DNA of 45,399 nt from a virus (lineage: Duplodnaviria; Caudoviricetes), in IMG/VR virus record IMGVR_UViG_3300020045_004936, positions 1-45,399 of that record. The stretch is one strand, 5' to 3'. Position numbers and translations under genes: made by a program. A model generated the notes under the pieces. That model was not told the origin of the DNA, did not search any database, and was given only the letters and a program-made list of their open reading frames with translations. Shown one piece after another: positions 8,386-45,399 of this stretch. Position 1 is the stretch's first letter, and each line of letters starts with the position of its first letter.

Positions 8386-8387
8386 TT

Positions 8388-12735: not shown

Positions 12736-12822
12736 TTATCCTCCTTTGGCTTCCTCGAAAAGTAGCAAGGGTCACAAATAAACAGCGTCTTATCAATCTC
12801 TTGGCCGCAGTCACGACAATGG

Positions 12823-16156: not shown

Positions 16157-16181
16157 CTCCATACTTAAACTAGGAGAATTG

Positions 16182-17138
16182 GTGTCGAAACTGTCTGGCA
16201 AATATTTAGCTTCCGAACTTCTCACCATCGACCTAAAAGGCTCCGAAGCTCTAATAGACCAAATACTCTTTGAACGCGACAACACGATTCTCCTGGGAAA
16301 AGAAAAGGCTGGCAAGTCTATATTCTCCATGCAAATGGCCTGTTCGCTGACTTCCGGCTCTCCCCTCCTAAACGAATACAAAGTCAAGGCTCCTTGTGAT
16401 GTAGTCTATATCCAAGCTGAGGGCAAGCTCTCCGGAACCCGTGATAACCTGAAGAACATGACCAAGGTTATAGACTGTGATTTCTCCAAGCTCCTATACC
16501 TTTATTATCCATCCATCCCGCTTGACACCGAGCAAGGTTATAACGAAATTATCGCCCAAATAAGCTCATGGCGCAGACCAGAAGTAATATTCATTGACCC
16601 TCTATATATGTCTATGTCGGGCGATATGAAGGATGATGTGGCTTCTAAGAAGATGGTCGAGAACCTCCGTATGCTATCTGAAATTTACCAAGCCACCATT
16701 GTGGTCGTCCACCACGCCCATCGCCCTATACGTATGAAAGACCACAGCATTGTAGATGAAGGCGATGACTCCATATTCGGCTCATTCGTCTGGAAAGCCT
16801 ACCCCGACAACATCATCCTTATCCAAAAAGTCACAGGGAACAAGTATCAGCGCAAAATCTCCTGCTCCACCCAACGCTCCGGCAAGACTATTGAAGGTAT
16901 AGACATCATGTTCATAGAGCCTACCCCTCTATACTTCAAGATTAAAGATGATTCCCGCCCGATAGATGACCTAGTTCTTGCCAATACCACCAAAGAAGGT
17001 TGCAACGCAGAGGACATTAGAAAAACTATTGATAAGTCCTATAAGCACACTTTGGATGCCTACCATAGGCTCCAAACGGCTGGAAAAGTAGCCCGTTTGA
17101 ACCCTCATAAAAACCCTGCTATTTTTGGCCTAGTTTAA
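16182..17138 (+). CDS. RepA-like (AAA_25, RecA-fold) helicase, possible C-terminal winged helix
   Basis: GKEKAGKS, VVYIQAEG, IFIDPLY, IVVVHH and GS..W motifs. Confidence 0.85.
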   Translation: MSKLSGKYLASELLTIDLKGSEALIDQILFERDNTILLGKEKAGKSIFSMQMACSLTSGSPLLNEYKVKAPCDVVYIQAEGKLSGTRDNLKNMTKVIDCDFSKLLYLYYPSIPLDTEQGYNEIIAQISSWRRPEVIFIDPLYMSMSGDMKDDVASKKMVENLRMLSEIYQATIVVVHHAHRPIRMKDHSIVDEGDDSIFGSFVWKAYPDNIILIQKVTGNKYQRKISCSTQRSGKTIEGIDIMFIEPTPLYFKIKDDSRPIDDLVLANTTKEGCNAEDIRKTIDKSYKHTLDAYHRLQTAGKVARLNPHKNPAIFGLV

Positions 17139-27335: not shown

Positions 27336-28286
27336 ATGGCAGGTGAATACTTTTTACAAACATCTTTAGACCAGGTGCTTGTCACCTCACTGGCTGACTA
27401 TGGCAAGCAAGTGACGGACAACGCCTATAACGGAAATACGCTATTGGCTTTGCTTAAGGCCAATGGACGCAAGAAGATGATTAATGGCGGAACGTCCATT
27501 ATCCGTCAGCTTGTGGACGAGGTTCAGAACAATGGTGGGTTCTATCTCGGTAACGATACCCTCTCGACCAACCAGACCGACACTCTGAACGCAGTTGAAT
27601 ACAAGTGGCAGAATGCTTACGAGCCAATTCAGATATCGCGTGACGAAGAGCGTCAGAACAGCGGAGATGAGCACAGGCTTATCAACCTGCTTGAGACGAA
27701 GATTAAGCTGAGCGAGCTAGCTATTCAAAAGCGCATGGAACAAGCCATGTCTACGCCTACTGGTGGAGCCAATAACTTGATTGACCTTGAAACCTTGGTC
27801 AACACAGGTACTCTTGGCACTATCGCAGGTGCTTCTCAGACATTCTGGCAGTCTACCGTTACGACCTCGGGAGCTTTCGCTACCCAGGGTTTGTCCGACA
27901 TGACGACGGCCTACTACGCGGTATCAGGTTCGCAGATGCAGGAGAATCCTACTCACTTCTTGACGACGAAAACGGTCTTCATCAAGTTCGAGCAGACTCG
28001 TCTTCCTCTCGAACGCTTCCAGAACACGATGACGGCTAACGCTGGATTCGAGAACCTGACGTTCAAGGGCAAGCCCATCACATACGGTAACTTCATTAGC
28101 TCCGGCCTCCTGTTCGGCCTGAACCTGAACTATATCGACTGGGTGGTTGATACGGAGACGGACTTTATCACGACTCCGTTCATAGTCCCTACGAACCAAA
28201 CCTCGAAGGTAGCCTTCATCCTGGTTCGTGGCAATATGATAACTGATAACCGCCGTAGGCACTTCAAACTTACGTCGATTTCTTAA
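27336..28286 (+). CDS. Major capsid protein
   Basis: 316 aa; DN...N.LL..L, GG..I, A.Y.W, GFENL.FKG.PI motifs typical of this capsid class; biased codon use. Confidence 0.9.
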   Translation: MAGEYFLQTSLDQVLVTSLADYGKQVTDNAYNGNTLLALLKANGRKKMINGGTSIIRQLVDEVQNNGGFYLGNDTLSTNQTDTLNAVEYKWQNAYEPIQISRDEERQNSGDEHRLINLLETKIKLSELAIQKRMEQAMSTPTGGANNLIDLETLVNTGTLGTIAGASQTFWQSTVTTSGAFATQGLSDMTTAYYAVSGSQMQENPTHFLTTKTVFIKFEQTRLPLERFQNTMTANAGFENLTFKGKPITYGNFISSGLLFGLNLNYIDWVVDTETDFITTPFIVPTNQTSKVAFILVRGNMITDNRRRHFKLTSIS

Positions 28287-29533: not shown

Positions 29534-30124
29534 ATGTACCAGGATGGTTTAGTCGGAGATATAGTTAAGCGAGATTCTGGCCAGGTTCCATTTGGCGTAG
29601 CATCAGGCCAAAGGGCTAACGAAGTCAGAATCTGGCACGTTCATATCATTTCCACAGGTTCTGCTGGAGAGGTAAAACTCTACAATGGAACTTCTACATC
29701 TGGTGAACTTCGTTATCAGCTAAAGGGAACTGCAAGCACAGGAGTAGACTTTGACTTTGGGACAAATGGGGCTTTATTTGAAAGTGGTTGCTACTGCGAG
29801 TTTGTTACTGATGCTAACATTACATCCGTAACTTTCTCCTATTATGGCACAGCAAACATTTCTTCAAGTTCCAGCTCTAGCTCCAGGTCAAGCTCCTCTT
29901 CTTCGTCCTCAAGCTCTTGCAGAAGCTCGTCTAGTTCTTCTAGGAGTTCTTCTAGTAGTTCTATGTCAAGCTCGAGTTCTTCATGTAGTTCATCTAGTAG
30001 TTCTTGTAGGAGTTCTTCGAGCAGTAGCTGTAGCTCGTCTAGTTCTTCAAGCTCTAGGTCAAGTTCGTCTAGCTCTTCAAGCTCTTCTTGTAGAAGTAGC
30101 TCTAGTTCCTCAGCAAACCTTTGA
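29534..30124 (+). CDS. Small beta-sandwich-like virion protein with 84-aa Ser/Cys/Arg tail
   Basis: About 109-aa globular domain, tract 29861-30112, ends SANL. Confidence 0.75.
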   Translation: MYQDGLVGDIVKRDSGQVPFGVASGQRANEVRIWHVHIISTGSAGEVKLYNGTSTSGELRYQLKGTASTGVDFDFGTNGALFESGCYCEFVTDANITSVTFSYYGTANISSSSSSSSRSSSSSSSSSSCRSSSSSSRSSSSSSMSSSSSSCSSSSSSCRSSSSSSCSSSSSSSSRSSSSSSSSSSCRSSSSSSANL

Positions 30125-30180
30125 TGCTACTACTAAACCTGGATAACCCAGGAAGTGACGCAAAAGGAAAAGGAGAATAA

Positions 30181-30594
30181 ATGCCTCGATATGTGTCAAA
30201 TGATGGTAAATGGACACCCGCAAAGGAAAAGGTAGCAATCACCAATTCTAAAGGTGAGCCGGAAATCTATGATGGGCCTGACCGCGCCGCCTTGGAAGAA
30301 ATGAAGGCAGGCAACGTTGAATCCCGTTATTTCTGGGAAGATACCGAGTGGGTGAATAGAGTGCGCCAACTCCACAACATGTCCATGAAAGAATACATGG
30401 ATTCTGTTGGCTTCGATAAGACTGTCTCTGAGACAGATTTTAAGAAGAAGTTGGAAGTCGTCAACACCCACAAGGAAGAGGGGCGTAAGCCAGCTTCCAA
30501 GTTCGCCTCTGGCGGCAAGAATACAGCCGGAAGTGGTGGCTCCCTCGAAGGCGATTTCGGTGACCTCGCCGACGCAAAGGCAAAGGTGAAGTAA
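30181..30594 (+). CDS. Hypothetical protein
   Basis: AAGGAG RBS; charged composition. Confidence 0.7.
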   Translation: MPRYVSNDGKWTPAKEKVAITNSKGEPEIYDGPDRAALEEMKAGNVESRYFWEDTEWVNRVRQLHNMSMKEYMDSVGFDKTVSETDFKKKLEVVNTHKEEGRKPASKFASGGKNTAGSGGSLEGDFGDLADAKAKVK

Positions 30595-31086
30595 TTGTCA
30601 ATAAGCCTTGACTCCCAGGTAGTCAAGCAAGCAAACATAACTGCTTCCTCTAGCGGTAACAACACAGTTGTTTCTGCCGTTCAGGGGAGGCAGATATGGG
30701 TGCTGAAGTGTGTAATGATTTCTTCTGGAGATGTCAACGTCAAGTTCCAATCAGGTGCTAGTGGACAAGATATTACAGGTTTATTCTACCTTACTGCCAA
30801 CACAGGCTTCGCTATGGCCCAGGATGACGGTATGTATGCGGCTCCTTGGTGCAAGACTCGTACAGGAGATTTGCTAAACCTAAACCTCTCAGGTGCTACA
30901 GCCGTAGGTGGCGTTCTAAGTTATATAGAGGTAGAATCTGGTCAGTATTCTTCAAGTTCCTCAAGTTGTCGCAGCAGTTCATCCTCATGTTCATCTAGCT
31001 CTTGCCGCAGTTCATCGAGTTCGAGTCAGAGTAGCTCATCTTCAAGCCGCTCTTCCTCTAGCTCAAGTTCTTCGGCAAATCCGTGA
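30595..31086 (+). CDS. Small beta-sandwich-like virion protein with 42-aa Ser/Cys/Arg tail
   Basis: TTG start right after the upstream TAA; tract 30949-31074; ends SANP; GTGA overlap with the aminotransferase. Confidence 0.72.
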   Translation: MSISLDSQVVKQANITASSSGNNTVVSAVQGRQIWVLKCVMISSGDVNVKFQSGASGQDITGLFYLTANTGFAMAQDDGMYAAPWCKTRTGDLLNLNLSGATAVGGVLSYIEVESGQYSSSSSSCRSSSSSCSSSSCRSSSSSSQSSSSSSRSSSSSSSSANP

Positions 31087-32144
31087 TAGACCTATTCCGT
31101 CCATTCGTTACGCAGGAAATGCGTGATGCGGTGAACGAAACTCTCCATTCTCGCTTCGTCGGTCAAGGCCCAAAGGTAGACCTATTCGAGAAAGACTTCT
31201 GCTACAAGTTTAACCTAGACTACGCCGCCTCTATGAACTCCGGCACATCGGCTCTTGAGACAGCCTATGATTTGATTGGGCTGAAGGAAGGTGATGAGGT
31301 AATCTCCACCCCTCTTACTTGTACCGCCACAAATCTTCCTCTAATACGCCGAGGCGTTAAAATAGTCTGGGCCGATATCCTCGAAGACACTCTCTGCATC
31401 AACCCCGTAGATGCCATAAAGAAGATAACGGAGCGTACTAAGGCAATCGTCCAAGTCCATCTTGGCGGCATAATGGCAAATGTTGGAGATGTAGGTGTGC
31501 CAGTCGTTTCAGATGCCTGCCAAGCCCTCGGTATCTTTAACGGTGACTACACATGTTGCTCCTTCCAAGCCATCAAGCACATTACAACTGGTGATGGCGG
31601 CATGCTTGTTACAGGTGACGCGGAATCCCACCACAAAGCTAAGCTCCTGCGCTGGTTTGGAATAGACCGCGAGAAGAAGATAGCTAACAACTGGCAGGCT
31701 TACGCCAAGAGGGCTATGACTTTCGACATTGAACTACCCGGTTGCAAGCGTCAAATGACCGACATCGCCGCCTCTATGGGTATCGTCGGACTTAAGCACT
31801 ATGACGACATCATGGCGCATCGCTCAAACATATATCATATCTACAAGGCTGAGTTAGCAGGAGTCCCAGGAATTAGGCTGGTTGATGGTGAGATAAACAC
31901 CTACTGGCTAGCGACCGTCTTAGTCGAGAAGCGTGATGACTTCGCCCGCATGATGTTTGAGGCCGACATCGACACTAACCTTGTCCAAATTCGTAACGAC
32001 ATCTTCAAGATATTCGGCGGTAAGCGAGTAAATCTACCAGTAATGAATAGGATAGAGGATAAGTATATCAGTATTCCTCTAAACATGAACGTAACCGAAG
32101 ATGATGCAGTTTATATCACACGGCGCATAAAGGGAGGGTGGTAA
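31083..32144 (+). CDS. DegT/DnrJ/EryC1/StrS-family PLP-dependent sugar aminotransferase
   Basis: NSGTSAL, GDEVI, DACQALG and SFQAIKHITTGDGGML (catalytic Lys) motifs. Confidence 0.95.
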   Translation: MIDLFRPFVTQEMRDAVNETLHSRFVGQGPKVDLFEKDFCYKFNLDYAASMNSGTSALETAYDLIGLKEGDEVISTPLTCTATNLPLIRRGVKIVWADILEDTLCINPVDAIKKITERTKAIVQVHLGGIMANVGDVGVPVVSDACQALGIFNGDYTCCSFQAIKHITTGDGGMLVTGDAESHHKAKLLRWFGIDREKKIANNWQAYAKRAMTFDIELPGCKRQMTDIAASMGIVGLKHYDDIMAHRSNIYHIYKAELAGVPGIRLVDGEINTYWLATVLVEKRDDFARMMFEADIDTNLVQIRNDIFKIFGGKRVNLPVMNRIEDKYISIPLNMNVTEDDAVYITRRIKGGW

Positions 32145-34955
32145 ATGTCTAAATGTGGATTCTGCAAGGCCGAAGTTAAACAATGGGATAGTGAGAGAGC
32201 CGGATACCTCATAGCCTCACTCAACAAGAATGGTGATGAGAGCTACCATACTCACGTTCATGGGACTCTGACTGACAAGAATATTGCTGAAGACTTGATA
32301 GATGCCCAAATCAAGGAAACTGGCCTTGTAGACCTATTCAAGCAGAAGTATGGAAGTACAGATAAGCTCTCCGGCATCAAAGAGATAATATTTCATAACC
32401 GCCAGCGAATTGGTGACATGATTATGTTTACCTGCGGAGTGCGGGACTTCAAGAAAGCCTATCCCGATATCAAGGTAAACATCATTTCCACATGTGGTCA
32501 CTTATGGGACTACAATCCCAATGTTGATAGGACAATAGTGCCGTTCTACAAGGACGGTGTAACACTAGAGAACGCCAAGCCAATAGACCTCCTCGAAGGT
32601 CGCACTAACGTCCTCAAAATTGGCCCATCCAAGCTCACCAACAAGTCCAACAGCCTTGATTGGCACTTTGCAAATGCCTTTAGGATGTCAATAGAAGATA
32701 ACCTCGGTATCCATATACCACAAGGTGAATCACGCGGTGATGTATGGCTGACTCAAGAGGAATACGACGCTCCTCGTATCACAGAGAAACCATACTGGAT
32801 TATCGTTACAGGCGGCGAAAAGGGTTGGGGCTGCAAGATGTATCCCACCGTCCGCTGGCAGGAGTTTGTTGACCAGAATCCAGAAATCCTCTTCTACCAA
32901 ATAGGCGCAAAAGGTGATGAGCATGTGAGGTTAAAGGGTGCTAATGTCGTTGACCACGTTGGTAAGACGGAGGACAGACAGACTGGTATCCGAGACCTAA
33001 TCAAGCTATTCCTCAATGCTGAGGGTTCCATCGGCCTGGTCTCCTTCCACATGCACCTGTCTGGCGCACTCAAGAAGCCATGTGTAGTAGTGGCTGGAGC
33101 TAGAGAACCAGTAAGCTTCACTCGCTATGCAGGTCATCAATACATCTCTACTGACGGTACTCTACCCTGTGCCACAACCGCCTGCTGGCACTGCGACATC
33201 AAAGCCTGCACCAATCCTGTTACCGTAGCTGGCGAGATTGTCCCCAAATGCGTAGACATGATTGAGCCTAGCGAGGTAAGTCGCTATCTCAACCGATACT
33301 ATTTAGGTGGCCGTCTAGCCAAAGACAAGCCCTCTCTAAAGCCTGTCCTCAAGAACATCGTTGAGACACCAGAGAAGCCAGTAGAGGTTCCCAAGACAGT
33401 TCACAACACCTACGGCCTTGAGTTCAATGGTGGCGCACTGACCGAACGCGACTGGGAGTTCATCTCAGGCATCATAGATAAGTATAAGGTTACTTCTGTG
33501 CTTGAGTTCGGAGCTGGTCTCTCCACTCTCCTTCTTAACGACAAGCTAAAGTATGTAGTTACCTATGAGGACAAACAGGGCTGGATAGATAAGCTAAAGA
33601 AGCTTAAGCCATGCAATATCAAGTTATGGAACGGTAAATCTACAGAAGGATTCACTGATGAAAATTTTGATATGGCCTTTGTTGATGGGCCTAGTGGGGA
33701 TTCTAGCCGTGAGCTTTCTACTCGCCTCGGGTCGGAGAGGGCCAAGATAGTAGTAGTCCATGATGCGGGGAGAGAGTTTGCTAGGAAGTTTCAGGAACAG
33801 TATCTAGCTCCAACCTTCAACGGCCCGTTCAAAGGCGGTCACCGCTGTCATGCTTGGATAGCTAAGTCTTTAGACCCTAAGCCTGAGCAGAAGCCTGATG
33901 TTCCAGCCACTCCTGACTGGCCTGCTATGACTATACCTGTCAACCGTATCAAGACAGTTAAGTTTGTTTCCACTGCTCGCGGATGGGGAGGCTGCGCTCG
34001 TAGCGTCACTACCTTGATGAAGCTACTACTCGCCCAAGGTCACAAGGTTGAGTTCGTACCATTCCGCAATCAAGTTAGCTCATCTGAGTTCAAGCAGATA
34101 CTCCAAGGTGAGTTGAAGGATGTGAAGGTAACAAACTCCTATGACATTCTCAAGGAACCATGCGACATCCTCTTCATGTACGCCGATGACTACATTTGGG
34201 AGTTCTCCAAGCCCGAAATAGCCGAAGCCTTCAGCCACATCAATGCTAAGAAGAAAATTATGGTACTCAACTATAGGCGTGGCGACGTCGGCAAGGCGGA
34301 ATGGACCAAAGGTTGGGACAAGTACATGTTCCTAAATAGTGGACAGGAGAAAGAGCTGCTTGGACTGCTGCCTACAGCCAAGACTAAAGTCCTCGCTCCT
34401 TGTACAGACCTTAGTCCATTCTTCCTCTCTAAGCCTGACTTCTCAGAACCATTCCACAAGGAGACAGCCATAAGGATAGTGAGGCACAGTTCTCAAGGCG
34501 ATACAAAGTTCGCCAAGGACTTCGGAACAGAAGTAGATGCGGTGTTAGCTTGTCGTCCTGATGTGCGTATGTCCATGCTTCCTGGGCCTAGCTTCGTTCA
34601 GGACTCCGACAGGTTCAAGAAAGTAGCTAGAACAGCTACTCCTTCTGTCATAGCCGACTTCCTAGAAACAGGCAACCTATTCTGGTACTCACTACCTACT
34701 GGCTACATGGACATGGGGCCGAGAGTAATCCTCGAAGCTATGGCTGCTGGCCTACCTATCCTAGCTGACAACTGGGGTGGAGCAGTAGACCGCGTCACTA
34801 CAGACTGCGGCTGGCTTTGCGACACCAAGGAACAGATGGTGGACATCATCAAGAATGTGACATTGGATGAGCTTAAATCAAAAGGTGCTGCAGCTCGTCT
34901 TCGCGCCAAAGAACTCTTTCACATGGACAACTGGATTAAGGAAATAGTCGAATGA
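32145..34955 (+). CDS. Multidomain enzyme: GT9-like glycosyltransferase + class I SAM methyltransferase + GT4-like glycosyltransferase
   Basis: RIGDMIM, K.YP..RWQE, S..MHL..AL.KP.VVV.G and Cys cluster (GT9-like); VLEFGAGLST, FVDGP, VVVHD (methyltransferase); GGCARS and PRVILEAMAAGLPI...GG (GT4). Confidence 0.85.
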   Translation: MSKCGFCKAEVKQWDSERAGYLIASLNKNGDESYHTHVHGTLTDKNIAEDLIDAQIKETGLVDLFKQKYGSTDKLSGIKEIIFHNRQRIGDMIMFTCGVRDFKKAYPDIKVNIISTCGHLWDYNPNVDRTIVPFYKDGVTLENAKPIDLLEGRTNVLKIGPSKLTNKSNSLDWHFANAFRMSIEDNLGIHIPQGESRGDVWLTQEEYDAPRITEKPYWIIVTGGEKGWGCKMYPTVRWQEFVDQNPEILFYQIGAKGDEHVRLKGANVVDHVGKTEDRQTGIRDLIKLFLNAEGSIGLVSFHMHLSGALKKPCVVVAGAREPVSFTRYAGHQYISTDGTLPCATTACWHCDIKACTNPVTVAGEIVPKCVDMIEPSEVSRYLNRYYLGGRLAKDKPSLKPVLKNIVETPEKPVEVPKTVHNTYGLEFNGGALTERDWEFISGIIDKYKVTSVLEFGAGLSTLLLNDKLKYVVTYEDKQGWIDKLKKLKPCNIKLWNGKSTEGFTDENFDMAFVDGPSGDSSRELSTRLGSERAKIVVVHDAGREFARKFQEQYLAPTFNGPFKGGHRCHAWIAKSLDPKPEQKPDVPATPDWPAMTIPVNRIKTVKFVSTARGWGGCARSVTTLMKLLLAQGHKVEFVPFRNQVSSSEFKQILQGELKDVKVTNSYDILKEPCDILFMYADDYIWEFSKPEIAEAFSHINAKKKIMVLNYRRGDVGKAEWTKGWDKYMFLNSGQEKELLGLLPTAKTKVLAPCTDLSPFFLSKPDFSEPFHKETAIRIVRHSSQGDTKFAKDFGTEVDAVLACRPDVRMSMLPGPSFVQDSDRFKKVARTATPSVIADFLETGNLFWYSLPTGYMDMGPRVILEAMAAGLPILADNWGGAVDRVTTDCGWLCDTKEQMVDIIKNVTLDELKSKGAAARLRAKELFHMDNWIKEIVE

Positions 34956-35563
34956 GGTCATCATACACAATCAACGACTACGGCCCTCTAATCGAGGAAT
35001 ATGTCCTCACCTGGCAACCATCAAGCTATGTAGAGCTTGGCGTCCTAGATGGTTACTCAACACTCCATATAGCCAAAGGACTTAAGCGTATCCATCAGCT
35101 TCGTGGATGGAAACCTACTCTTGACGCCTACGACCTCTTTGATGATTACCAGTTCAAGCATGGTAACAAGGAAGAAGTCGCCGACCTTCTAAAGTCCGAA
35201 GGCGTAAGCGATTACGTCAACCTCCAATCCGGTGACGCCTACAAGGTTCACGCTAACTATCCTGACGTAACCTTTGACAAGCGTGGAGTAGAGTTCCTCC
35301 ACATCGACATCAGCAATACAGGCAAGGTCTTGAGCGACATCATGGCTCTCTGGCACCCTAAGATAAGCGGACGCGCAATAGTGATGATAGAAGGCGGCTC
35401 TGAGGAGCGCGACAACGTTGGCTGGATGAAGAAGTTCGACAAGCCATCAATCAAGGCCGAGATAGAGTCGAGCGAGCTAATCAACAAGTATTATCACTAT
35501 GGGACATATTTTAGGTATCCTTCCCTCACAGTTCTTCTTCGCAAATGGTGGGATGTAAAATGA
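34952..35563 (+). CDS. Class I SAM methyltransferase (Methyltransf_24-like)
   Basis: YVELGVLDGYST, AYDLF, FLHIDISN motifs. Confidence 0.85.
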   Translation: MRSSYTINDYGPLIEEYVLTWQPSSYVELGVLDGYSTLHIAKGLKRIHQLRGWKPTLDAYDLFDDYQFKHGNKEEVADLLKSEGVSDYVNLQSGDAYKVHANYPDVTFDKRGVEFLHIDISNTGKVLSDIMALWHPKISGRAIVMIEGGSEERDNVGWMKKFDKPSIKAEIESSELINKYYHYGTYFRYPSLTVLLRKWWDVK

Positions 35564-36279
35564 CCTTTGGTCCTAACTTCTTCTCAGACGGACGGCACCC
35601 TGGGAGCCAAGAAACCTATGACTTCATAGCAGACTGGAATGGCAACAGACTTCCATTCTCTCATAAAGACGGATGGGGACGCTTCGGTATATTAGGCGTC
35701 CTAGGCGATATGGTTCTCACATCTCTTCCTGGCACCCACATAGTCGAAATAGGCACAGGAGAGTCATCAATCTACCTAACCCAACTCGCTCGTCTACACA
35801 ACAGACGCATATTCTACTGTGACGAAGCTCGCGGCAAGATAACCAACCCTCTCACCATCAAAGGTTATCTCCATGAAGACACCGTCCTGCTCAACGGTGA
35901 CGCCGCTATGCACAACTACATGAATAGCCAGGCTGTTGCCTATGTCGGCACATCGGATGACTTCTTTGCCAACATCAATCTCCCCAAAATCGGCTTAGCC
36001 TTCATCGACGGCGAACACCATTACGAATACGTCAAGCGCGACTTTGAGAACATCTTTGAGAGGCTCGTACCAGACGGTTACATCTTTATCCATGATACAT
36101 ACCCTTATGAAGAAGGACTAGTCTTGGGCGACTATTGCGCTGACTCCTATAAGATACGCCAGGAGCTTGAGAAGGACGACCGCGTAGACACCTTCTGCTT
36201 CACCAAGATGGTTGCCTGTAACGTAGGCATGTTTATGGTTCGCAAGAAACCACTCAATCGGCCTTATTATCAACAATGA
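35560..36279 (+). CDS. Class I SAM methyltransferase (Methyltransf_24-like)
   Basis: IVEIGTGESS, AFIDGEHHYE.V..DF, L.PDGYIFIHDT; ATGA overlap gives start 35560. Confidence 0.88.
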   Translation: MTFGPNFFSDGRHPGSQETYDFIADWNGNRLPFSHKDGWGRFGILGVLGDMVLTSLPGTHIVEIGTGESSIYLTQLARLHNRRIFYCDEARGKITNPLTIKGYLHEDTVLLNGDAAMHNYMNSQAVAYVGTSDDFFANINLPKIGLAFIDGEHHYEYVKRDFENIFERLVPDGYIFIHDTYPYEEGLVLGDYCADSYKIRQELEKDDRVDTFCFTKMVACNVGMFMVRKKPLNRPYYQQ

Positions 36280-37316
36280 ATGAGATAACCGAACTAGACC
36301 AGATGCTCTGCGGAATTCTGCCTAACAACTTCTCGGGCATGGACTATGACCGCACCAAGTCTAAGTACACTTGGAATGACTGTGAGTTCAATATGAACCC
36401 TCGTCCTCTCCAGGGCGACACAGCCATCATCGTCACTAGCTATCAAGGTCAGCTTGGCTGGCTAAGGGCTACACTCGAAAGTTACAGGAAGTCTGGTGCC
36501 TATGTTATCCTAGCTTACGATAATCCAGCTTTCATCTGGAACAACATAGATGACTCCGACTACATGCAAAAGATGTTTCCGCGCCCAATTCACTATCTCT
36601 TAGCCCACTCTGTAGTCACCAAGCATAAGACCTACGATGCCGATAAGCGCACAGGCTGGTTCTGGGACGTATGGCATGCCCAAGGGATAATCCGCAATAT
36701 GCCCAATATCAAGTATGTCTACTGCACAAATGGAGATTGCATCATAGAACGGCCTGAAGGCATAGCCGAACTCCCATCAATCCTAGCTGATGGCGACTTC
36801 ATGTCAGGCCAATCAATGCCTGGTGGCACAATTCACACCGCCAACATGTTTCTCAAGGTAGACACATTCCACAAGATACTAGACTACATGACAGGCCGGA
36901 TGAAGCACTCCATCATGGCCTCATGCTCCCCGGAAGGTATGCTGAGGGACGCAGTAGATGAGATTAAGCTCAAAGAGACTTTCGTTAGTCAGCCCATCCT
37001 GCCTGACGGCTCAATAGACTACTACTGCATCCAGAACCTAGACTCCACCTGGAAGAATGTGCTTGGCTTCCGCAATCTCTATGGCGAGTTCGAGTACCGA
37101 GAGAACAACGGCCTAGAACCTCTCCCATCCAAGTATCTAGACCCATTCCGCGACTACTTCTACTTCCGCGAGGACTGGCGCGAGACAGTCTGCATGTACT
37201 ACAAGACAGGCGACCGCCGTTATCTCGGTATGTTCTGGGATAGAGGCAAAGACTCAGACTACGACCGCAAGTATCTCCCACTCGAAGCCTATGGAGGGTC
37301 GCCAATATTGGTGTGA
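36276..37316 (+). CDS. Putative GT-A-fold glycosyltransferase
   Basis: AIIVTSY...LRATLES...VILAYDN and YVYCTNGDC (DxD-like) pattern; paralog of the next gene. Confidence 0.6.
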   Translation: MNEITELDQMLCGILPNNFSGMDYDRTKSKYTWNDCEFNMNPRPLQGDTAIIVTSYQGQLGWLRATLESYRKSGAYVILAYDNPAFIWNNIDDSDYMQKMFPRPIHYLLAHSVVTKHKTYDADKRTGWFWDVWHAQGIIRNMPNIKYVYCTNGDCIIERPEGIAELPSILADGDFMSGQSMPGGTIHTANMFLKVDTFHKILDYMTGRMKHSIMASCSPEGMLRDAVDEIKLKETFVSQPILPDGSIDYYCIQNLDSTWKNVLGFRNLYGEFEYRENNGLEPLPSKYLDPFRDYFYFREDWRETVCMYYKTGDRRYLGMFWDRGKDSDYDRKYLPLEAYGGSPILV

Positions 37317-38266
37317 CACCAGAAGACCTCATACGCACAGGCCGCTACCTTGATATGCCTGATGAAGACTGGATAGCGGAGCTAGCCACCCGTAAGTATG
37401 TCCTAGGCTGCTACGAGGCCAACGACGCCTGGGCTACTAAGATTCACAAGAATGTGGGAGTGCTGCTCACCTCCTCAGTCTATGGACGCCCATACCTCAA
37501 GGCTTCATTAGAATCCCACAAGAAGCTCGGCTACTGGACTGTCCTCGCCTATGACAACTTCATCAACCCAGAATGGCAGGCAATAGACTATAACGCCTGG
37601 ATTCCCCCAATCGACGTAATGAACATGGTGGATACTTTCCTAGTCCCTCACCATCAAACCTGGGGTGGGGTGAGCTATCCATTTATATGGATGCTGAGAT
37701 TGGCCTCCGGCATATTTCACTCAATGGACTACGTCCTCGTCAACAACGGCGACATGGTGCTTGAGAAACCAGAGAACTTTCAGCTACTTCTCGATAAGAT
37801 GGGCGACGCTGACTTGATGAGTAGTGGGCCATCGTTACCTCGTGAAATAGGTACTGCTGGCATCCTAATGAAATCCTCAGCATTCATCGCCATAGCCAAG
37901 CATATGAGCGACCACATGGTGCCAGCAACTGCTTACTACGCCTCAACTCAAGAATTTGGTAACACCGAAGGCCGCCTAGCCGTAGCCGTCAGAGAACTTG
38001 GCCTAAAACAAGTAATCTGTACCCCGGGCTTCTGTCCTAACCACCCAGTCTGCGAGCAACTTCACACTCCTGGCGGTGAATGGTACGACACTATAGGCAT
38101 GCGCCATATTCACGGAGAGCTTAATGCGGCTTACCGCTACAAGCTCATGCCTCCTCCATCACGCTACCTCGACCAACGCTTCTGCGGAAATGAGGACTGG
38201 AAGGCGGCTCTAGCTTATGAAGCAGGAGATATTGAAGCAGTTAAAGCATGGTGGGCTAAAGATTAA
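37313..38266 (+). CDS. Putative GT-A-fold glycosyltransferase (paralog)
   Basis: GVLLTS...LKASLES...TVLAYDN and YVLVNNGDM pattern. Confidence 0.6.
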   Translation: MTPEDLIRTGRYLDMPDEDWIAELATRKYVLGCYEANDAWATKIHKNVGVLLTSSVYGRPYLKASLESHKKLGYWTVLAYDNFINPEWQAIDYNAWIPPIDVMNMVDTFLVPHHQTWGGVSYPFIWMLRLASGIFHSMDYVLVNNGDMVLEKPENFQLLLDKMGDADLMSSGPSLPREIGTAGILMKSSAFIAIAKHMSDHMVPATAYYASTQEFGNTEGRLAVAVRELGLKQVICTPGFCPNHPVCEQLHTPGGEWYDTIGMRHIHGELNAAYRYKLMPPPSRYLDQRFCGNEDWKAALAYEAGDIEAVKAWWAKD

Positions 38267-39306
38267 TGGCACTAGCAGTTGTACAGACCAAGACTGGCGT
38301 CACCACAACCAACGACACCATAGCGGTGACTTTTGATGCCCCTACTACGGCAGGGAACCTCATAGTTGCTCAAATCATGGCATACGGTCTTGCTGCAGGC
38401 TCCACTGACGCCGCCTCCTTCTCATCCTGCACAGACGGAACCAACACCTACTCCATCGGACATGCTTATAAACAGAACTCAGGGTCTAACTCCGAGCATG
38501 TTTGGCAGAGATACACTGCTAACGCCTCATCTGTAAGCACCGTAACTGCCGTAGTCATCCACGCGCCTGGCGAAGACCAGATGAACGTAAGGATGACTAT
38601 ATTTGAGATTTCAGGAGCCGCTACATCTACACCGTTAGATAAGACCGTCACCGCTGAGGGTACTGGCACAGCTGTAGCCTCTGGAAGCACAGGCACATTA
38701 ACTCAAGCTGATGAAATAGGCATTGGCGGCGCGATGGCTGGGTCCGCAGCCACCTATACCGCTGGCACAGGCTGGACTGAGATACAAGACGCTAGTAATG
38801 CAACCACAGGCCATAAGATTGTTGCTGCCACAACCGCTATTAACTTTGACCCTACCGCAAGCGCGTCTGTCAACTGGGTAGCTGGTATTGGCACATTTAA
38901 GGCCGCTGCGGCTAGTAGTTCATCTAGCAGCAGCTGTCGAAGTTCTAGTTCATCCAGCTCTTCAAGCTCTAGTAGGTCTAGCTCCTCATCTTCTAGGTCA
39001 TCAAGCTCTTCTAGCTATAGTAGCTCTTCTTCGTCATGCAGGAGTTCAAGTAGCTCTAGTTGCAGTAGTTCAAGTTCTTCTTGTAGGAGTAGCAGCAGCA
39101 GCAGTAGCTGTAGCAGCTCAAGAAGTTCCAGTTGTAGTAGTAGCTCATGTAGTTCTTCTAGCAGCTGTATCAGCTCTAGTAGCTCATCAAGCACTAGTAC
39201 GAGGCCAGATATGCCGCGCATTACAGCGAGTCAGTTCGAGGCTCTTCTTGGCGACAGGTTGTCTGGAAGCGTATTAACTTATAGAGGAAGATGGTCTAAA
39301 CACTAA
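38266..39306 (+). CDS. Virion adhesin-like protein: beta domain + 95-aa Ser/Cys/Arg tract
   Basis: Domain homologous to the tail protein domain at about 290-930; tract 38914-39198. Confidence 0.75.
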   Translation: MALAVVQTKTGVTTTNDTIAVTFDAPTTAGNLIVAQIMAYGLAAGSTDAASFSSCTDGTNTYSIGHAYKQNSGSNSEHVWQRYTANASSVSTVTAVVIHAPGEDQMNVRMTIFEISGAATSTPLDKTVTAEGTGTAVASGSTGTLTQADEIGIGGAMAGSAATYTAGTGWTEIQDASNATTGHKIVAATTAINFDPTASASVNWVAGIGTFKAAAASSSSSSSCRSSSSSSSSSSSRSSSSSSRSSSSSSYSSSSSSCRSSSSSSCSSSSSSCRSSSSSSSCSSSRSSSCSSSSCSSSSSCISSSSSSSTSTRPDMPRITASQFEALLGDRLSGSVLTYRGRWSKH

Positions 39307-40622
39307 TGGCGTTTGCAGCAGTACAAAGTATAACTCAGGTATCTGGCAATCAATCCACTGTTCCTGGTGTCGCTACAGTAGCGTCAACAGGTGCAAATAA
39401 TTTAGTTGTTGTACATATTAAACTAAATTTAAGCACTAGAACAGTTACTTCCGTTACAGATGATATCGGTCATGTCTATGCTTTAAGCGCTGCCTTAGAC
39501 TCTGGTACTACCAATAGGTTATATCAAGCTTACGGTGTTCAAACAACAGGCGGCGCAACACAGATAACTGTAAACTTTGGTGGCACTGGAAATTTTGCCT
39601 GGAGATTCGGAGTCGATGAATACAGCGGTGGAGAAACCACAAACGCGGCCATCTATGATACCGGGAACACGGGCACAGGTTCCACAGGCACAAGTCTTGC
39701 TGTTGGCAGTTTCACACCCGCGGCCACTGGTGAATTAATTGTTGCTACCTACGCGACGACTGCTGCAAAAACCTGGACAGCCGGAACAAACTATACACTT
39801 TACAACGGCGCGTCGACGACCGTACAAAGTGAGTATGACCTAGCAGGAACAACATCAGAGACAGCCCCAATTACCATAAGCTCCAATGGAGTTTGGGCTG
39901 GAATTGCATCAGCGTTTATACCACTTTCTGCTTCTTCGAGTTCTAGCTCCAGTAGAAGTAGCTCCTCGTCCTCATCTTCATGTAGAAGTAGTAGCTCCAG
40001 TTCTAGTAGTAGAAGTTCCAGTTCTTCCTCAAGCTCAAGGAGTAGCTCGAGCAGTTCCTCTAGCTCCAGCTCTCGAAGTAGTAGCTCAAGTTCATCTAGC
40101 AGGAGCAGTTCTTCTTCTAGCAGTAGTAACAGTAGCTCGTCTTCATCTTCTAGTAGCTCATGTCGTTCGAGTTCATCGAGCAGCAGTAGTCGGAGTTCAA
40201 GCTCATCAAGTTCATCTAGAAGCTCTAGCTCAAGTAGTTCGTCCTCTTTATCGAGTTCATCGAGTTCAAGCAGCAATTCATCTTCTAGCTCATCGTCTAG
40301 TTGTTCGAGTTCTAGTAGCTCTAGTTCATGTCGGTCAAGTTCTAGTAGCTCAAGTAGTCTTAGTAGCTCATCATCTAGCAGCTGTCAGAGCAGTTCTTCT
40401 TCATCCTGCTCTAGCTCCTCAAGTTGTAGGTCATCGTCATCAAGTAGCTCGGCTTCTACAGGAAGTAGCTCATCTAGTAGCTCCTGTAGTTCATGCAGCT
40501 CGTCTTCTTGCAGTAGTTCATGCAGTTCTTCATCTTGTTCAAGCAGTAGTAGCTGCAAGTCGTCGAGTTCTTCAAGCTCATTTAGGAAGATACACAATCT
40601 ACCATTGTTAGGAGTAGGATAA
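39306..40622 (+). CDS. Virion adhesin-like protein: beta domain + 218-aa Ser/Cys/Arg tract, C-terminal LPLLGVG
   Basis: Related beta domain; tract 39927-40580; TAATG coupling at both ends. Confidence 0.75.
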   Translation: MAFAAVQSITQVSGNQSTVPGVATVASTGANNLVVVHIKLNLSTRTVTSVTDDIGHVYALSAALDSGTTNRLYQAYGVQTTGGATQITVNFGGTGNFAWRFGVDEYSGGETTNAAIYDTGNTGTGSTGTSLAVGSFTPAATGELIVATYATTAAKTWTAGTNYTLYNGASTTVQSEYDLAGTTSETAPITISSNGVWAGIASAFIPLSASSSSSSSRSSSSSSSSCRSSSSSSSSRSSSSSSSSRSSSSSSSSSSSRSSSSSSSSRSSSSSSSSNSSSSSSSSSSCRSSSSSSSSRSSSSSSSSRSSSSSSSSSLSSSSSSSSNSSSSSSSSCSSSSSSSSCRSSSSSSSSLSSSSSSSCQSSSSSSCSSSSSCRSSSSSSSASTGSSSSSSSCSSCSSSSCSSSCSSSSCSSSSSCKSSSSSSSFRKIHNLPLLGVG

Positions 40623-41031: not shown

Positions 41032-41529
41032 ATGAGATACATACTTGCTTTTCTGATGTGTTTGAGCCTAACTGGATGTGCTACTAACCCTTTCTCTGGG
41101 ATACTACGTCCTCCTAGCGAACCTAGGAAGATAGCCAACTACTTACAGTCAGAGAAGCAAGTACCTCTCAAGGTCGGTATAACACCAGATGGTAAAGACG
41201 TTATAGCCTATGCGACTGAGCGCACCTATGTGGCTAACTCATCCGAAACACCCGAGAAACTAAGCTTTATTCAGCGACTTGGACGGTGGATTGGTAGCCT
41301 ATCTTTATTAGCTGCCCTGTTCATCATGGCTAGTATCGCCTTCTTTGGCGGCGCACCAATACTCTGGGCAGTTAAGAAATACTACACAGTTAAGAACGCT
41401 TTAAAGAATACAGTCGCAGCTATAGACAACATTGACCCTGCTGACTTTGAGAAGATTAAGCCTAAACTTGCAGCCGAGCAAGACACCACTGATAAGAAAC
41501 TTATCGCCAAACTAAAGGCGGAAATATAA
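41032..41529 (+). CDS. Lipoprotein with internal TM helix, possible unimolecular spanin
   Basis: Lipobox LTGC at residues 13-16; hydrophobic LSLLAALFIMASIAFFGGAPILWAV segment. Confidence 0.55.
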   Translation: MRYILAFLMCLSLTGCATNPFSGILRPPSEPRKIANYLQSEKQVPLKVGITPDGKDVIAYATERTYVANSSETPEKLSFIQRLGRWIGSLSLLAALFIMASIAFFGGAPILWAVKKYYTVKNALKNTVAAIDNIDPADFEKIKPKLAAEQDTTDKKLIAKLKAEI

Positions 41530-42746
41530 TGTTCACATTCTCAGACCTTCAAGAAGAAGTTAAGCGCAGGGCGACTAAAGACCAGGGTGGTACACAGTTC
41601 GACACCGCTATCAAGAATGTCATCAACACATCACTATTTAGGATTGCAAGGGAATGTCCTTGGAGAGTATTGCGACGTAAGAGTTTCTTCACTACCGAAA
41701 CTAGCTATTCTACTGGAACTGGCGCAGTAACTGTTACAGCAAGTTCTGCTTCATTCTCAGTAGTAGGCGCAACATTTGGTGTCAATAATATCCAAGTCGG
41801 GCGTAGGATTAAGTTTGGAACAGATTCAAACTACTATACCATCCGCACAATTACCTCAGAGACTGCTGGAACACTCGATAGGCTCTATGCTGGAACAACG
41901 TCTACCACGACTTCTTATGAGATTCTACCTACTGAGGAATATAACCTCCCAATCCAGGTTAACCCTCAGCGCGACTTCCTATGGCACACAGCCTACGGAT
42001 ATCCTACTCAGCTTGAATATATCACTGACCAAGACTTCCGCAGCTACAGCGTAAACGAAAACCAAGTTGGTATACCCATAACTTATCGTATGTGGGGTCA
42101 GGATATGATAATTACGCAGCCTGCACAGCCATCAACTATGAGAGTAACATCCAGTTCCTCAGCCGACACAGCAATACCTATTACAGTATTCGGTATAGTA
42201 TCTGGCTATCCTGATTATGAAGTAATAAGCACTAATGGAACTACGGAGGTATCAGGCTCTAAGATATTTAGCTCTGTAGAGAGAGTGTCTAAGGGGCTGA
42301 CAAGTACCGGACGCATCACAGTTGATGCAAACTCAGCAGCTGATACTATCGCCGTTATGCCTGTAGGTGATACAACTGCAGGTATCATGTACTCCAAGTG
42401 TCAGCTCTGGCCTCTCCCTGACGGAATATATCCTATAAACGTCAACTACTACAAAGACCCATATAGACTAGTTAACAGTAACGAAATACATGAGCTTGGG
42501 CAAGAGTTTGATGAGGCCATCATACTGTTAGCTACTGCTAAGATTAAGTATGAGAGTTCCATGAATGAGGACGGTGACAAGTTCTTTGGACTCTATACAG
42601 ACGAGGTTAAGACTCTTCGCCGCACCAACATGGATAAAATTGATTGGCTTCCTACTCTACAGAAGCCTAGAAACTCTAGGATTACTGGCAGAGGTATAAC
42701 TTACGGTCAAGTCGGGCCTAATTATGGCCCAAGTGGGTATAGATAA
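41529..42746 (+). CDS. Head-tail adaptor (tail tubular protein A-like) with inserted beta domains
   Basis: MFTFSDLQEEV..R, IN.....I....PW..L, LWPLPD..Y.I...YY motifs. Confidence 0.7.
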   Translation: MFTFSDLQEEVKRRATKDQGGTQFDTAIKNVINTSLFRIARECPWRVLRRKSFFTTETSYSTGTGAVTVTASSASFSVVGATFGVNNIQVGRRIKFGTDSNYYTIRTITSETAGTLDRLYAGTTSTTTSYEILPTEEYNLPIQVNPQRDFLWHTAYGYPTQLEYITDQDFRSYSVNENQVGIPITYRMWGQDMIITQPAQPSTMRVTSSSSADTAIPITVFGIVSGYPDYEVISTNGTTEVSGSKIFSSVERVSKGLTSTGRITVDANSAADTIAVMPVGDTTAGIMYSKCQLWPLPDGIYPINVNYYKDPYRLVNSNEIHELGQEFDEAIILLATAKIKYESSMNEDGDKFFGLYTDEVKTLRRTNMDKIDWLPTLQKPRNSRITGRGITYGQVGPNYGPSGYR

Positions 42747-44269
42747 TGGCTGGTATAAAATTCACAACGCCCTCAGCTCCACTTAGTATTAAGAAGCTAA
42801 ACGGAGGACTTAACTCTACAGCCGGGCCTCTTGGCCTTGAGCAGAATGAGTTCTCCGATTTACTCAACATTGACTTCGACAAGTTTGGGAGTTTCCTAAA
42901 GCGCAACGGCTACACTACTCTCAACACATCCGTCTTCAACTCCTCTGAACGTTGGACTGGTCTAGCATGGTTTGAACTAGCTGATGGCACACGATACATA
43001 GTAGGCACCTGTGGAAACAAGTTGGCTAAGATGGATAGTTTGGACGGGACTTGGGATGACATCACAGGTGCGCTGACTATCACAGCCGGAAATCTGACCA
43101 ACTTCACCATATTCAGGAATAACTTGCTCGCTACAAATGGTGTAGACGTACCATTCCTTTGGACTGGAACAGGTAACGGGTCTGCTATGACAGTTCCGAC
43201 TGGCCTAACTACAGCCAGAGCCATAGAAGTATTTCAATCATACACCTTCCTAGCTAACGTAACAGTAAGCGGCACAGCCTACAAATCTCGCCTCTACTGG
43301 TCCGCTTTAGACGAAATAGCCACCTGGGACTTAGCCGACTTCAACGATGTTGCTAGGGACGATGGACAAACTATAGTCGCCATCAAGACTCTTGCTGACC
43401 GCCTGGTAATCTTCAAGGAACGCTCAATTCACCTTGCCTTCTTCACAGGCGACGCAGATGTACCTTTCCGCTTCCAGAAGTCAAACAGCGCAGTTGGCTG
43501 CATAGCCCAATTCAGCGTCCAAGAGGTAGAGAACGGCCTAGTGTTCCTTGCCACCGACGGCCTCTACTACTTTGACGGCAATAACTCCAACAAGATAAGT
43601 GACCGTATCTCCACCACCATCCAAGGCTACAACACTACCCAGTTTGATGAAGCTTGCTCAATGTATCAACACGCTAAGAACCGCTACTGGCTTGCGCTCC
43701 CAGGAGCCTCATCTAGCACAAATAACAGGGTAATTGCTTGGGACACCTTCAACAACGCCCTCTCAATCTACAGTGGTATGGCGCCATCTTGCATGACTAC
43801 TATCTACAATTCCGGCATAGATGAAAGGCCGTACTGGGGAGATTACTCAGGCTTTGTATATAGAGGTGATGTTGGAGATAATGATAGCCCTCTTGGAGTT
43901 TCTACAGCTGTAAACGCCTACGCCTACACCCGCTGGATAGACTTCGATGACTTGGTGGACAAGAAGGGTATCCCTAATGTCTACATCTACCACAAGATTG
44001 AGAGTGGAACTCTCTCCTACTCCTACTCCTACGACTTTGAAGAGGGCGACCAGTATACCCTCACCTTCTCCATGGACACTAGCACCTCACTCTGGGACGC
44101 ATTTCTCTGGGACGTAGGCAAGTGGGCAGGAAGTGGCGGTAAGGAGAAACGCTTGGACTTAACAGGCAGAGGGCGTGTAATACGATTCAAGTTCGCCAAC
44201 AACGCCCTAGATGAACAATTCAGAATCGACGGCATAGGTGTGTTTGGACACCTTCAGACAAACGTATGA
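42746..44269 (+). CDS. Tail nozzle / tail tubular protein B-like (P22 gp10-type) beta-propeller
   Basis: GGLN, N..FD..G...KR.G, RLYWS, LVIFKE.SI, VGCIA..SV, FLA.DGLY.FDG motifs. Confidence 0.8.
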   Translation: MAGIKFTTPSAPLSIKKLNGGLNSTAGPLGLEQNEFSDLLNIDFDKFGSFLKRNGYTTLNTSVFNSSERWTGLAWFELADGTRYIVGTCGNKLAKMDSLDGTWDDITGALTITAGNLTNFTIFRNNLLATNGVDVPFLWTGTGNGSAMTVPTGLTTARAIEVFQSYTFLANVTVSGTAYKSRLYWSALDEIATWDLADFNDVARDDGQTIVAIKTLADRLVIFKERSIHLAFFTGDADVPFRFQKSNSAVGCIAQFSVQEVENGLVFLATDGLYYFDGNNSNKISDRISTTIQGYNTTQFDEACSMYQHAKNRYWLALPGASSSTNNRVIAWDTFNNALSIYSGMAPSCMTTIYNSGIDERPYWGDYSGFVYRGDVGDNDSPLGVSTAVNAYAYTRWIDFDDLVDKKGIPNVYIYHKIESGTLSYSYSYDFEEGDQYTLTFSMDTSTSLWDAFLWDVGKWAGSGGKEKRLDLTGRGRVIRFKFANNALDEQFRIDGIGVFGHLQTNV

Positions 44270-45399
44270 AAGCACCCCTATTCGGCTGTTCTCAGACTAA
44301 TCCTGCAACAAGCGGCATAACCTACATTCCTCTTTCTGCTGGAGGTGTGACAGAGAATGCTACAGAGGCGAAGGTTGAGCAGGTCATACCTTTTAGCGGA
44401 GGCACTCTAAAGAACTTCTATTTAGCCTTAGGCACAGCTCCTGGCGCAGGCAAGAGTTGGACATACAAGCTTAGGGTGAACGAAGCCTACGCATCACCAG
44501 CCGTAACACTCACTATCTCAGATACTTCCACAACGGCTAATGACACTACCAATGAGGTTAGCGTCACTGCAGGAGATAGAGTGTGTTGGGAAATTACTCG
44601 CTCAGGCACTCCGGCAACTTCCGCACATCGTTGGGGTCAGACCTGGATAAGCGGAACATCTAATCAAGCTCCAATACTAGGTGGAACCTCTGCCAACGCT
44701 CCTACGGCCTCTGCCCAATACTTCAACATCATGGGTGGCCCAAATCGCTCATGGAGTTCAACATTACTTGACCGAGACGGTATATGCTCTGTCCCTGGCA
44801 CACTACAAAGGTTCTACATCAGCCTAGACTCCGCGCCAGGCATAGGTAAAAGCTACCTATTCAAAGTATTCGTTAATGGCGTAGCCTCCGGTATTCAAGT
44901 AACAATAGCAGATGCAGCTACTACTGGTAACGACATAACCAATACAAAGGCTATCGTAGCGGGCGACTCAATCTGCGTAGAATGTACACCTTCAGGCACA
45001 CCCACAGCAGTAGCTGCTTGTTGGGGATTAGGACTTGCCCCCACTACAGACGGCCAAACTCCTCTAATCTACGGTGACTTTGGCGTAAACTCAGGCTCGG
45101 CAGATAGATACGTCCAGCCTCTTGGTTCTAGCTCATGGAGCAGTACCTCTACAAACCGTCTCCCTCTCTGCTCTGAGATAATTACATTTAAGAACCTCTA
45201 TGTTAGGACAAGTGCTGCAGCAGGAGCAGGAAAGTCATTCGACTTCATAGCACGTTTAAACACTACCGAGCAAACAATGGATGCTCAAGTAGCAGGGGCA
45301 TCAGCCGTAACCGCCAATGATACCACCAACACTTTTACTTGCGCCGCAGGAGACAACATAAGCATTGTATCTCGCCCGGCAGGAAGCCCTACAGCCGTA
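44266..45399 (+). CDS. 5' part of junction-spanning tail protein; three tandem repeats of about 125 aa
   Basis: ATGA overlap with the nozzle stop; open to the window end; repeats GTLKNFY..APGAGKSW / GTLQRFY..APGIGKSY / TFKNLY..AAGAGKSF, each with ND.TN....AGD. Confidence 0.88.
   Translation, partial: MKAPLFGCSQTNPATSGITYIPLSAGGVTENATEAKVEQVIPFSGGTLKNFYLALGTAPGAGKSWTYKLRVNEAYASPAVTLTISDTSTTANDTTNEVSVTAGDRVCWEITRSGTPATSAHRWGQTWISGTSNQAPILGGTSANAPTASAQYFNIMGGPNRSWSSTLLDRDGICSVPGTLQRFYISLDSAPGIGKSYLFKVFVNGVASGIQVTIADAATTGNDITNTKAIVAGDSICVECTPSGTPTAVAACWGLGLAPTTDGQTPLIYGDFGVNSGSADRYVQPLGSSSWSSTSTNRLPLCSEIITFKNLYVRTSAAAGAGKSFDFIARLNTTEQTMDAQVAGASAVTANDTTNTFTCAAGDNISIVSRPAGSPTAV
45279..45399. repeat. 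Terminal direct repeat, copy 2 (circular assembly overlap)
   Basis: Identical to 1-121. Confidence 0.97.

Follow-up and report, generated by a model that had tools for sequence, protein, structure and literature searches.

What does a cassette of sugar-modifying enzymes do between the capsid and tail genes of a phage, and why is it bordered by proteins with long serine tails? These questions are raised by IMG/VR record IMGVR_UViG_3300020045_004936 (Duplodnaviria; Caudoviricetes), a 45,399-nucleotide (nt) stretch of DNA that was analysed in full and is called the window below. It is a complete phage genome, with an exact 121-nt direct terminal repeat that closes it to a circle of 45,278 nt. 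Five of its proteins (A, B, C, D and T) bear serine tracts and six of its genes form the cassette. We consider it probable that poly-Ser tags on the particle proteins of this phage are O-glycosylated by enzymes that it encodes itself. The initial annotation had read the tracts as acceptor tags; this is supported by the co-occurrence of tracts and cassette, by orthologues that have no tail and by the TibC-like fold of the likely priming enzyme, from which we infer glycosylation. The tagged proteins are as follows.

29534..30124, plus strand: protein A, 196 amino acids (aa), a phage domain of ∼109 aa and a C-terminal Ser tract (29861-30112, 72 Ser in 84 aa)
30595..31086, plus strand: protein B, 163 aa, TTG start, a domain of ∼118 aa and a C-terminal Ser tract (30949-31074)
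38266..39306, plus strand: protein C, 346 aa, a domain of ∼216 aa and a Ser tract (38914-39192)
39306..40622, plus strand: protein D, 438 aa, a domain of ∼209 aa and the longest tract, with 182 Ser (39933-40580)
44266..45399, plus strand: 5′ part of protein T (tail region; 1,325 aa as a whole), which reads on across the terminal repeat
122..2965, plus strand: 3′ part of protein T, with tracts at 158-271, 941-1153 and 2474-2701

Serine tracts are selected as protein and added to existing genes

The five proteins contain 522 serines in 616 tract residues, whereas 16 other genes examined have Ser runs of 1-4 residues at most. When the tracts of the wider survey are pooled, Ser accounts for 87.7% of residues and Thr for 0.14%. 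The window tracts draw on all six Ser codons, AGY making up 220 of the 489 counted, and the tract arginines use both CGN and AGR codons. Across the seven tract regions there is no common exact DNA word longer than 17 nt. Therefore, the tracts reflect selection at the protein level and not slippage. DNA slippage or an assembly artefact was ruled out by the mixed codons, by the presence of only short degenerate arrays and by an orthologous tract of equal length in L001, a close relative; a genuine gene in another frame across the tracts was ruled out by the orthology of the N-terminal domains.

The order of the non-serine residues is also constrained. In the window tracts Cys-Arg occurs 20 times and Arg-Cys never, with 2.7 expected of each, and in 24 close loci the counts are 149 versus 0; more distant groups have no Cys-Arg. 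A bias towards Ser runs of even length (runs of 6 and 8 in the window) proved not to be general, as even exceeded odd in 7 of the 24 close loci and odd exceeded even in 13.

Protein A matches phrog_28102 (unknown function), and its Atlas neighbours are viral proteins of 107-109 aa; a sequence search of solved structures found nothing for it. Orthologues of its domain occupy the same slot in 16 tract-less loci, where they end within 20 residues of the matched domain. Similarly, the protein B orthologue in L006/L007 (46% identity) ends directly after the domain. These tail-less orthologues in relatives that do not have the cassette indicate that the Ser tract is a tag appended to genes that exist without it.

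The initial annotation had also claimed three tracts in a fifth, tail protein, and reading T across the terminal junction bore this out. The T tracts keep three domains apart: one that is C-like, one that forms a right-handed beta-helix (PF13229 matches at E 3e-5, below its cut-off) and one of 87 aa at the C-terminus. The domain of protein C shares 44% identity with the middle one of T, and the D domain is weakly similar to that of C (E 4e-4). The C-terminal domain of T also follows a tract in L001 and L028, and in L001 a LamG domain takes the place of the N-terminal domains of T on the same tract and C-terminal domain. This swap would fit a stalk that joins an anchor to a head which can be exchanged. 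No homology was found between the C-terminal domain of T and the 123-aa post-nozzle protein of L007. In L001 (11165-13140), the closest relative, X2 (one of the cassette enzymes listed below) appears shortened to 272 aa and is followed, where the window has C and D, by an open reading frame (ORF) which we take from its motif to be HNH-like.

Tracts and cassette occur together across unrelated phages

Random assortment of tracts and enzymes among relatives had been named as an outcome that would speak against the proposal. Instead, the two are present or absent together in relatives defined by the capsid gene and co-occur across unrelated phages. The capsid-anchored control comprised 34 records with a related capsid protein. 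Only one of these, G006, has tracts (two others have a single chance match of the Thr/Ala type), and G006 is also alone in having X1 and the TibC-like domain, both of which belong to the cassette; the other 33 have neither tracts nor cassette, including 13 records that are at least 90% complete. Fisher tests of the association gave p values of about 1e-12, with relatedness ignored.

Relatives gathered through X1, which included the best 80 of 233 from the metagenome scan, formed 71 clusters at 90% identity, of which 45 had less than 3 kb of flank and were set aside. A tract was present in 22 of the 26 informative clusters, always on the cassette strand. The four without one all have less than 600 nt of upstream sequence. 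Among these exceptions, L102 has a viral-collection counterpart, G083, which agrees with it in length and in glycosyltransferase (GT) identity and has tracts 30-55 kb away; L017, in a record that is 63% complete, has only antisense poly-Asp. The L017 contig (G002) begins inside the cassette and, over 2-8706, carries the full cassette and then non-structural genes including an AAA ATPase. The TibC-like domain was not found in five X1 records, which are only 12-21% complete.

Relatives of the TibC-like domain (the best 80 of 237) formed 69 clusters, and 48 of these have a tract within 10 kb, a count biased upward by the inclusion in the search alignment of five homologues found through tracts. 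Ten of the remaining 21 do have tracts or a Ser-rich protein at other places in their records: seven records with 36-472 tract-pattern matches on one strand (G073 and G077 were inspected as sequence, G080 is known through L090 and four are known by counts only), two with tracts, and one with a degenerate Ser/Cys-rich protein of 1,261 aa immediately upstream. A further ten records without a tract are 3-51% complete. The contigs span 41-548 kb and include phages with P22-like portals, phages with tape-measure genes and a contig in a bacterial genome bin. In the large phages G083, G073 and G077 the tracts lie tens of kb from the enzyme and yet still co-occur with it. Neither X1 nor the TibC-like domain had a match among 50,697 GenBank phage records.

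Starting instead from the tracts, a Ser-codon pattern recovered at least 124 stretches in 79 loci, 46 of them with a tract of at least 30 aa. After duplicates and short or single-codon-type tracts were dropped, 34 were kept and 33 analysed; the set includes L210, which was added with its enzyme match already known and in which the start of the contig truncates the tract. Among the matches listed, eight of the 33 records have the TibC-like domain (seven of 32 without L210; two pairs are near-identical), usually in the gene adjoining the tract gene and with X1 absent, and seven further records carry other transferases. Tracts thus pair with several transferase sets, the TibC-like domain being the core of the present one. 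The tract-first matches sit among capsid, baseplate and tail genes. Two other approaches were unproductive: 604 pattern matches to the tract as a protein query were none of them confirmed by tblastn, and a first tract pattern gave five loci, of which two were known cassette contigs, two antisense Thr/Gly repeats and one tract-less.

Variant arrangements were seen in this survey. In L153 (9982-11913), which belongs to a phage encoding a family A DNA polymerase, a stand-alone TibC-like gene and a Ser-tailed gene are transcribed divergently. L183 (4343-9498, minus strand) carries a TibC-like cassette with at least four methyltransferases, an epimerase and a radical SAM gene, and no X1.

The cassette encodes predicted soluble transferases, methyltransferases and an aminotransferase

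The cassette proteins, none of which has a membrane-like segment, are as follows.

31083..32144, plus strand: DegT/DnrJ/EryC1/StrS nucleoside diphosphate-sugar aminotransferase (PF01041, E 2e-66)
32145..34955, plus strand: soluble three-domain fusion of 936 aa with no hydrophobic segment
32370-33320, plus strand: fusion domain 1, GT9/TibC-like of the GT-B class, by fold; PF01075 in 12 of 24 homologues at E<=0.1
33414-33869, plus strand: fusion domain 2, O-methyltransferase-like (best profile E 4e-7; TIGR01627 weak)
33954-34952, plus strand: fusion domain 3, GT4-like (weak Pfam match; profile matches to BshA and PimB′, E 7e-9)
34952..35563, plus strand: class I methyltransferase (Methyltransf_24, E 3e-10)
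35545..36279, plus strand: class I methyltransferase (Methyltransf_24, E 1e-16)
36276..37316, plus strand: X1, a GT-A-fold protein (model predicted local distance difference test, pLDDT, 94; Z 13-14, root-mean-square deviation, rmsd, 3-4 Å, ∼170-190 residues aligned)
37313..38266, plus strand: X2, a paralogue of X1 (28% over 288 aa, E 2e-28)

The TibC-like domain was modelled from 24 sequences (pLDDT 87.5), and TibC was the top Foldseek match (E 2.4e-11, TM score 0.64). VIA gave Z scores of 21.9 for a Veillonella GT9 protein, 20.8 for TibC and 20.5 for WaaF, with the lowest rmsd, 2.8 Å over 261 aligned residues, for TibC. G90-D91 and the cysteines C342, C347, C355 and C369 do not vary among 18 homologues, the most distant of which has 32% identity. 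A search of solved structures by sequence returned nothing for the domain profile.

The claim of two GT-A-like paralogues stands for X1 by its model, and the paralogy of X2 is clear; X2 would have the GT-A fold through that paralogy. In X1, N152-x-D154 is invariant at the position of the GT-A DxD motif. Nucleotidyltransferases have the same fold at Z 11-12.7, and no Pfam family was found in 99 X1 homologues. For the aminotransferase, the PseC, LegC and ArnB models score below their cut-offs; residues 160-165 read SFQAIK, which we take to be the pyridoxal-phosphate lysine site. No genes for nucleotide-sugar precursor synthesis were found, so the donors would have to come from the host.

A proposed route to a glycan coat

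From the tracts, folds, gene linkage, co-occurrence and added tails, enzyme activities and an order of steps can be proposed. The TibC-like domain of the fusion would prime serines in the cytoplasm of the infected cell, taking the first sugar, possibly heptose, from a host nucleotide-sugar. The GT4 domain and the two GT-A proteins would lengthen the glycan, the aminotransferase would provide an amino-sugar made from a keto-sugar nucleotide of the host, and methylation of the product would fall to the three methyltransferases. All steps would be cytoplasmic, before or during particle assembly. The tagged proteins (the small pair encoded near the capsid genes, the two added ones and the tail-region fibre) would then give the particle stiff glycosylated stalks and brushes, and such a coat might shield it from proteases or adsorption, extend its fibres or mimic the host surface.

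More tentatively, and as something close to an even call, we suggest that the tag is transferable: the TibC-like enzyme would prime any exposed poly-Ser run, so that a Ser tail would suffice to coat any particle protein with a methylated amino-sugar bottlebrush. The ordered Cys-Arg punctuation in this clade may determine the register in which serines are modified, or may form cross-links within the brush.

Several observations count against glycosylation of poly-Ser tags on the particle. Within the capsid clade, the window and G006 may represent a single gain. One record, G092, is 93% complete and has a TibC-like gene and no poly-Ser, a true exception, possibly with a Thr or short-Ser acceptor variant. 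Among the matches listed in the tract-first set, 18 of the 33 records have no transferase, 17 of them being at most 53% complete, and in G039, a complete inovirus-like provirus with a 40-aa tract, no transferase was found. By VIA, the fold ties TibC together with the lipopolysaccharide (LPS) heptosyltransferases and does not separate them; LPS heptosyltransferase models matched the window domain weakly and the Aah/TibC model did not. GT2, GT4 or Maf-like genes are present in nine of the 16 most complete tract-less capsid relatives, and therefore the association with tracts is particular to this cassette and does not extend to sugar genes at large. Finally, the tagged domains match no annotated virion family in Pfam or PHROGs, so their placement in the particle is suggested by gene position.

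Sugar genes near capsid genes are common in the capsid relatives. In L007 (G001; complete, tract-less, capsid 76%), a Maf/MptE-like gene at 12167-12841 follows a 264-aa post-capsid gene and could represent a different glycosylation strategy within the same clade. A Maf-type transferase was rejected as the primer: among 49 records PF01973 matched only the tract-less G001, below cut-off. In G092, the TibC-like gene and a second probable transferase (L339, 9983-16475) lie beside Gly-Pro-Thr collagen-like proteins.

Alternative explanations

The tracts could be unmodified flexible spacers, possibly cross-linked through cysteine, and the cassette could modify other virion proteins or small molecules, the two being linked by hitch-hiking in a mobile block. 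Bacterial polyserine linkers are described as flexible spacers (PMC3542200), the T tracts do lie between domains, and generic transferases are common without tracts. In contrast, the tract is at or near the C-terminus in four of the five tagged proteins, where there is little or nothing to link, and the tails of A and B, being terminal, link nothing. Moreover, the A tail and the T tracts lie outside the contiguous block, T by 3.6 kb, and G083, G073 and G077 keep tracts and enzyme tens of kb apart. We regard unmodified spacers as doubtful.

It is also unlikely, in our view, that the tracts are glycosylated on proteins some or all of which are outside the particle, such as decoys released at lysis or accessory proteins acting on the host. 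The absence of virion family matches would suit this, as would the absence of proteins B, C and D from L001. Nevertheless, all five tagged genes fall within the capsid-to-tail gene run, the A orthologues hold the same slot in 16 loci, T follows a nozzle-like gene and has a beta-helix where L001 has LamG, and the tract-first matches lie among structural genes.

We give little credence to a third possibility, remodelling of host LPS or another surface glycan for serotype conversion or superinfection exclusion. By VIA, GT9 LPS heptosyltransferases do no worse than TibC, O-antigen pathways employ DegT aminotransferases, and a related cassette adjoins terminase and portal genes on the contig from a bacterial genome bin (L107). 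The window cassette, however, has no membrane protein and lies tightly packed within the structural genes instead of forming a unit of its own, and the association with tracts would be left without a reason.

Sugar hypermodification of phage DNA is scarcely credible: phage GT-A/GT-B enzymes add hexose, N-acetylhexosamine or heptose to 5-hydroxymethylcytosine from clusters that can lie near structural genes (bioRxiv 10.1101/2023.12.21.572611), and the methyltransferase at 35545 partially matches PHROGs labelled ‘DNA methyltransferase’, but the methyltransferase domains match small-molecule or sugar O-methyltransferase types, no cytosine methyltransferase, 5mYOX/TET or thymidylate-synthase-like gene was seen among the 58 ORFs scanned with PHROGs (many small ones having no family), and the tracts would go unexplained.

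Glycosylation of the tags on the particle thus remains our preferred interpretation. If it is correct, a glycan coat on dedicated tags is a feature of many uncultured phages of various types (in a set of representatives at 50% identity, the TibC-like profile matched 1,058 clusters at E<=1e-30), and would have consequences in the environment for how stable the particles are, how they adsorb and how they recognise hosts. A soluble, sequence-simple bacterial O-glycosylation tag would be a further outcome. The window is a compact test case: it is complete at 45 kb, encodes the six enzymes and two tagged proteins of small size, and has untagged orthologues that serve as natural controls.

Genome setting

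A PHROGs scan recognised terminase, capsid, adaptor-like and nozzle-like genes. Since no gene of tape-measure length is apparent, the genome would seem to be that of a short-tailed phage. The structural genes around the cassette are as follows.

27336..28286, plus strand: major capsid protein (phrog_9953, E 3e-39), the bait for the control set
30181..30594, plus strand: conserved 137-aa gene without a tract, with homologues in most capsid relatives
41529..44269, plus strand: head-tail adaptor-like and nozzle/head-closure-like genes (phrog_10775, phrog_3287, phrog_578)

The gene order given in the initial annotation was recovered, with the addition that the 137-aa gene, which belongs to the ancestral structural module, separates the two small Ser-tailed genes. 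It had further described every junction from 30595 to 40622 as an overlap or abutment, and the coordinates agree: from 30594/30595 the gaps are 0, −4, 0, −4, −19, −4, −4, −1 and −1, then −1 at 40622. The cassette (31083-38266) has no intergenic gaps and measures 7,184 nt, or 15.9% of the circle, matching the estimate of about 7.2 kb and 16%. This gene packing would be compatible with late co-expression of the enzymes and Ser proteins. Promoter and terminator scans gave fewer sites than in shuffled sequence, and Rfam gave no match.

Elsewhere in the window, an AAA_25 helicase-like gene (16179-17138, plus strand) lies inside an early region that is otherwise on the minus strand, and an SPFH/Band 7 membrane protein gene is at 11594-12640 (minus strand). 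A second SPFH/Band 7 gene, judged by eye, adjoins the TibC-like gene in L318.

Comparison with known systems

The closest system is that of the bacterial autotransporter heptosyltransferases (BAHT; TibC and AAH, PDB 4RAP/4RB4; PMC4358343). TibC adds heptose to Ser and not to Thr, and binds iron through a four-Cys finger. BAHT enzymes take the heptose from ADP-heptose and form dodecamers. Both systems have a GT-B catalytic fold of the GT9 type and an enzyme encoded beside its presumed Ser-containing protein substrate. The four invariant cysteines of the phage domain lie near its C-terminus with a spacing of 5/8/14, as against 3/16/12 for those in the C-lobe insertion of TibC, and might form a comparable finger. 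TibC has an N-terminal beta-barrel (residues 1-97); here, 75 residues with no Pfam match precede the domain. The phage domain is fused to a methyltransferase and a GT4 domain, its homologues at L153 and L210 being stand-alone ORFs of 338-346 aa; the presumed acceptors are homopolymeric Ser tags rather than beta-helix loops; and the phage cassette adds extending and methylating enzymes. Against TIGR04414 (cut-off 200 bits), the window domain had no match and two of three homologues scanned scored 21.3 and 15.7 bits, far below the cut-off. As the window domain misses the Aah/TibC model, it is BAHT-like at best and we do not class it as BAHT.

In the streptococcal serine-rich repeat (SRR) adhesins, GtfA/B prime and accessory enzymes extend the glycan to give protease-resistant stalks (PMC7661464). 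As here, a Ser-rich acceptor or stalk and core and accessory transferases are encoded in one locus, a likeness of arrangement only; cytoplasmic O-glycosylation and a binding domain projected on a stalk would be common features under our proposal. No SecA2/SecY2/Asp export genes and no GtfA/GtfB were found among the genes scanned with Pfam, NCBIfam and PHROGs. SRR adhesins are built of regular short repeats, whereas the phage tracts are near-pure Ser with Cys/Arg punctuation and five separate proteins are tagged.

Virion glycosylation by phage enzymes is known in the mycobacteriophages Che8, Corndog and Myrna (Freeman et al. 2023, via PMC12363180, PMC12619734 and PMC12582341), where the modification is at the C-termini of the capsid and tail tube subunits (PMC12619734). 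There, a phage's own glycosyltransferases decorate its own particle; here, phage-encoded glycosyltransferases are indicated by fold and profile. In the window, by contrast, the long tags are on accessory proteins, and the capsid protein is tract-less. The bacterial polyserine linkers (PMC3542200) also place long Ser runs between or beside folded domains, but the phage tracts are often terminal, contain up to 182 Ser and are tied to a specific transferase family.

The initial description of a categorically new system was therefore overstated, as both phage virion glycosylation and Ser-rich acceptors beside transferases are known. A literature search, with subscription journals mostly outside it, returned no description of poly-Ser acceptor tags with a TibC-like enzyme in phages. 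The window contributes a complete small genome with matched untagged orthologues.

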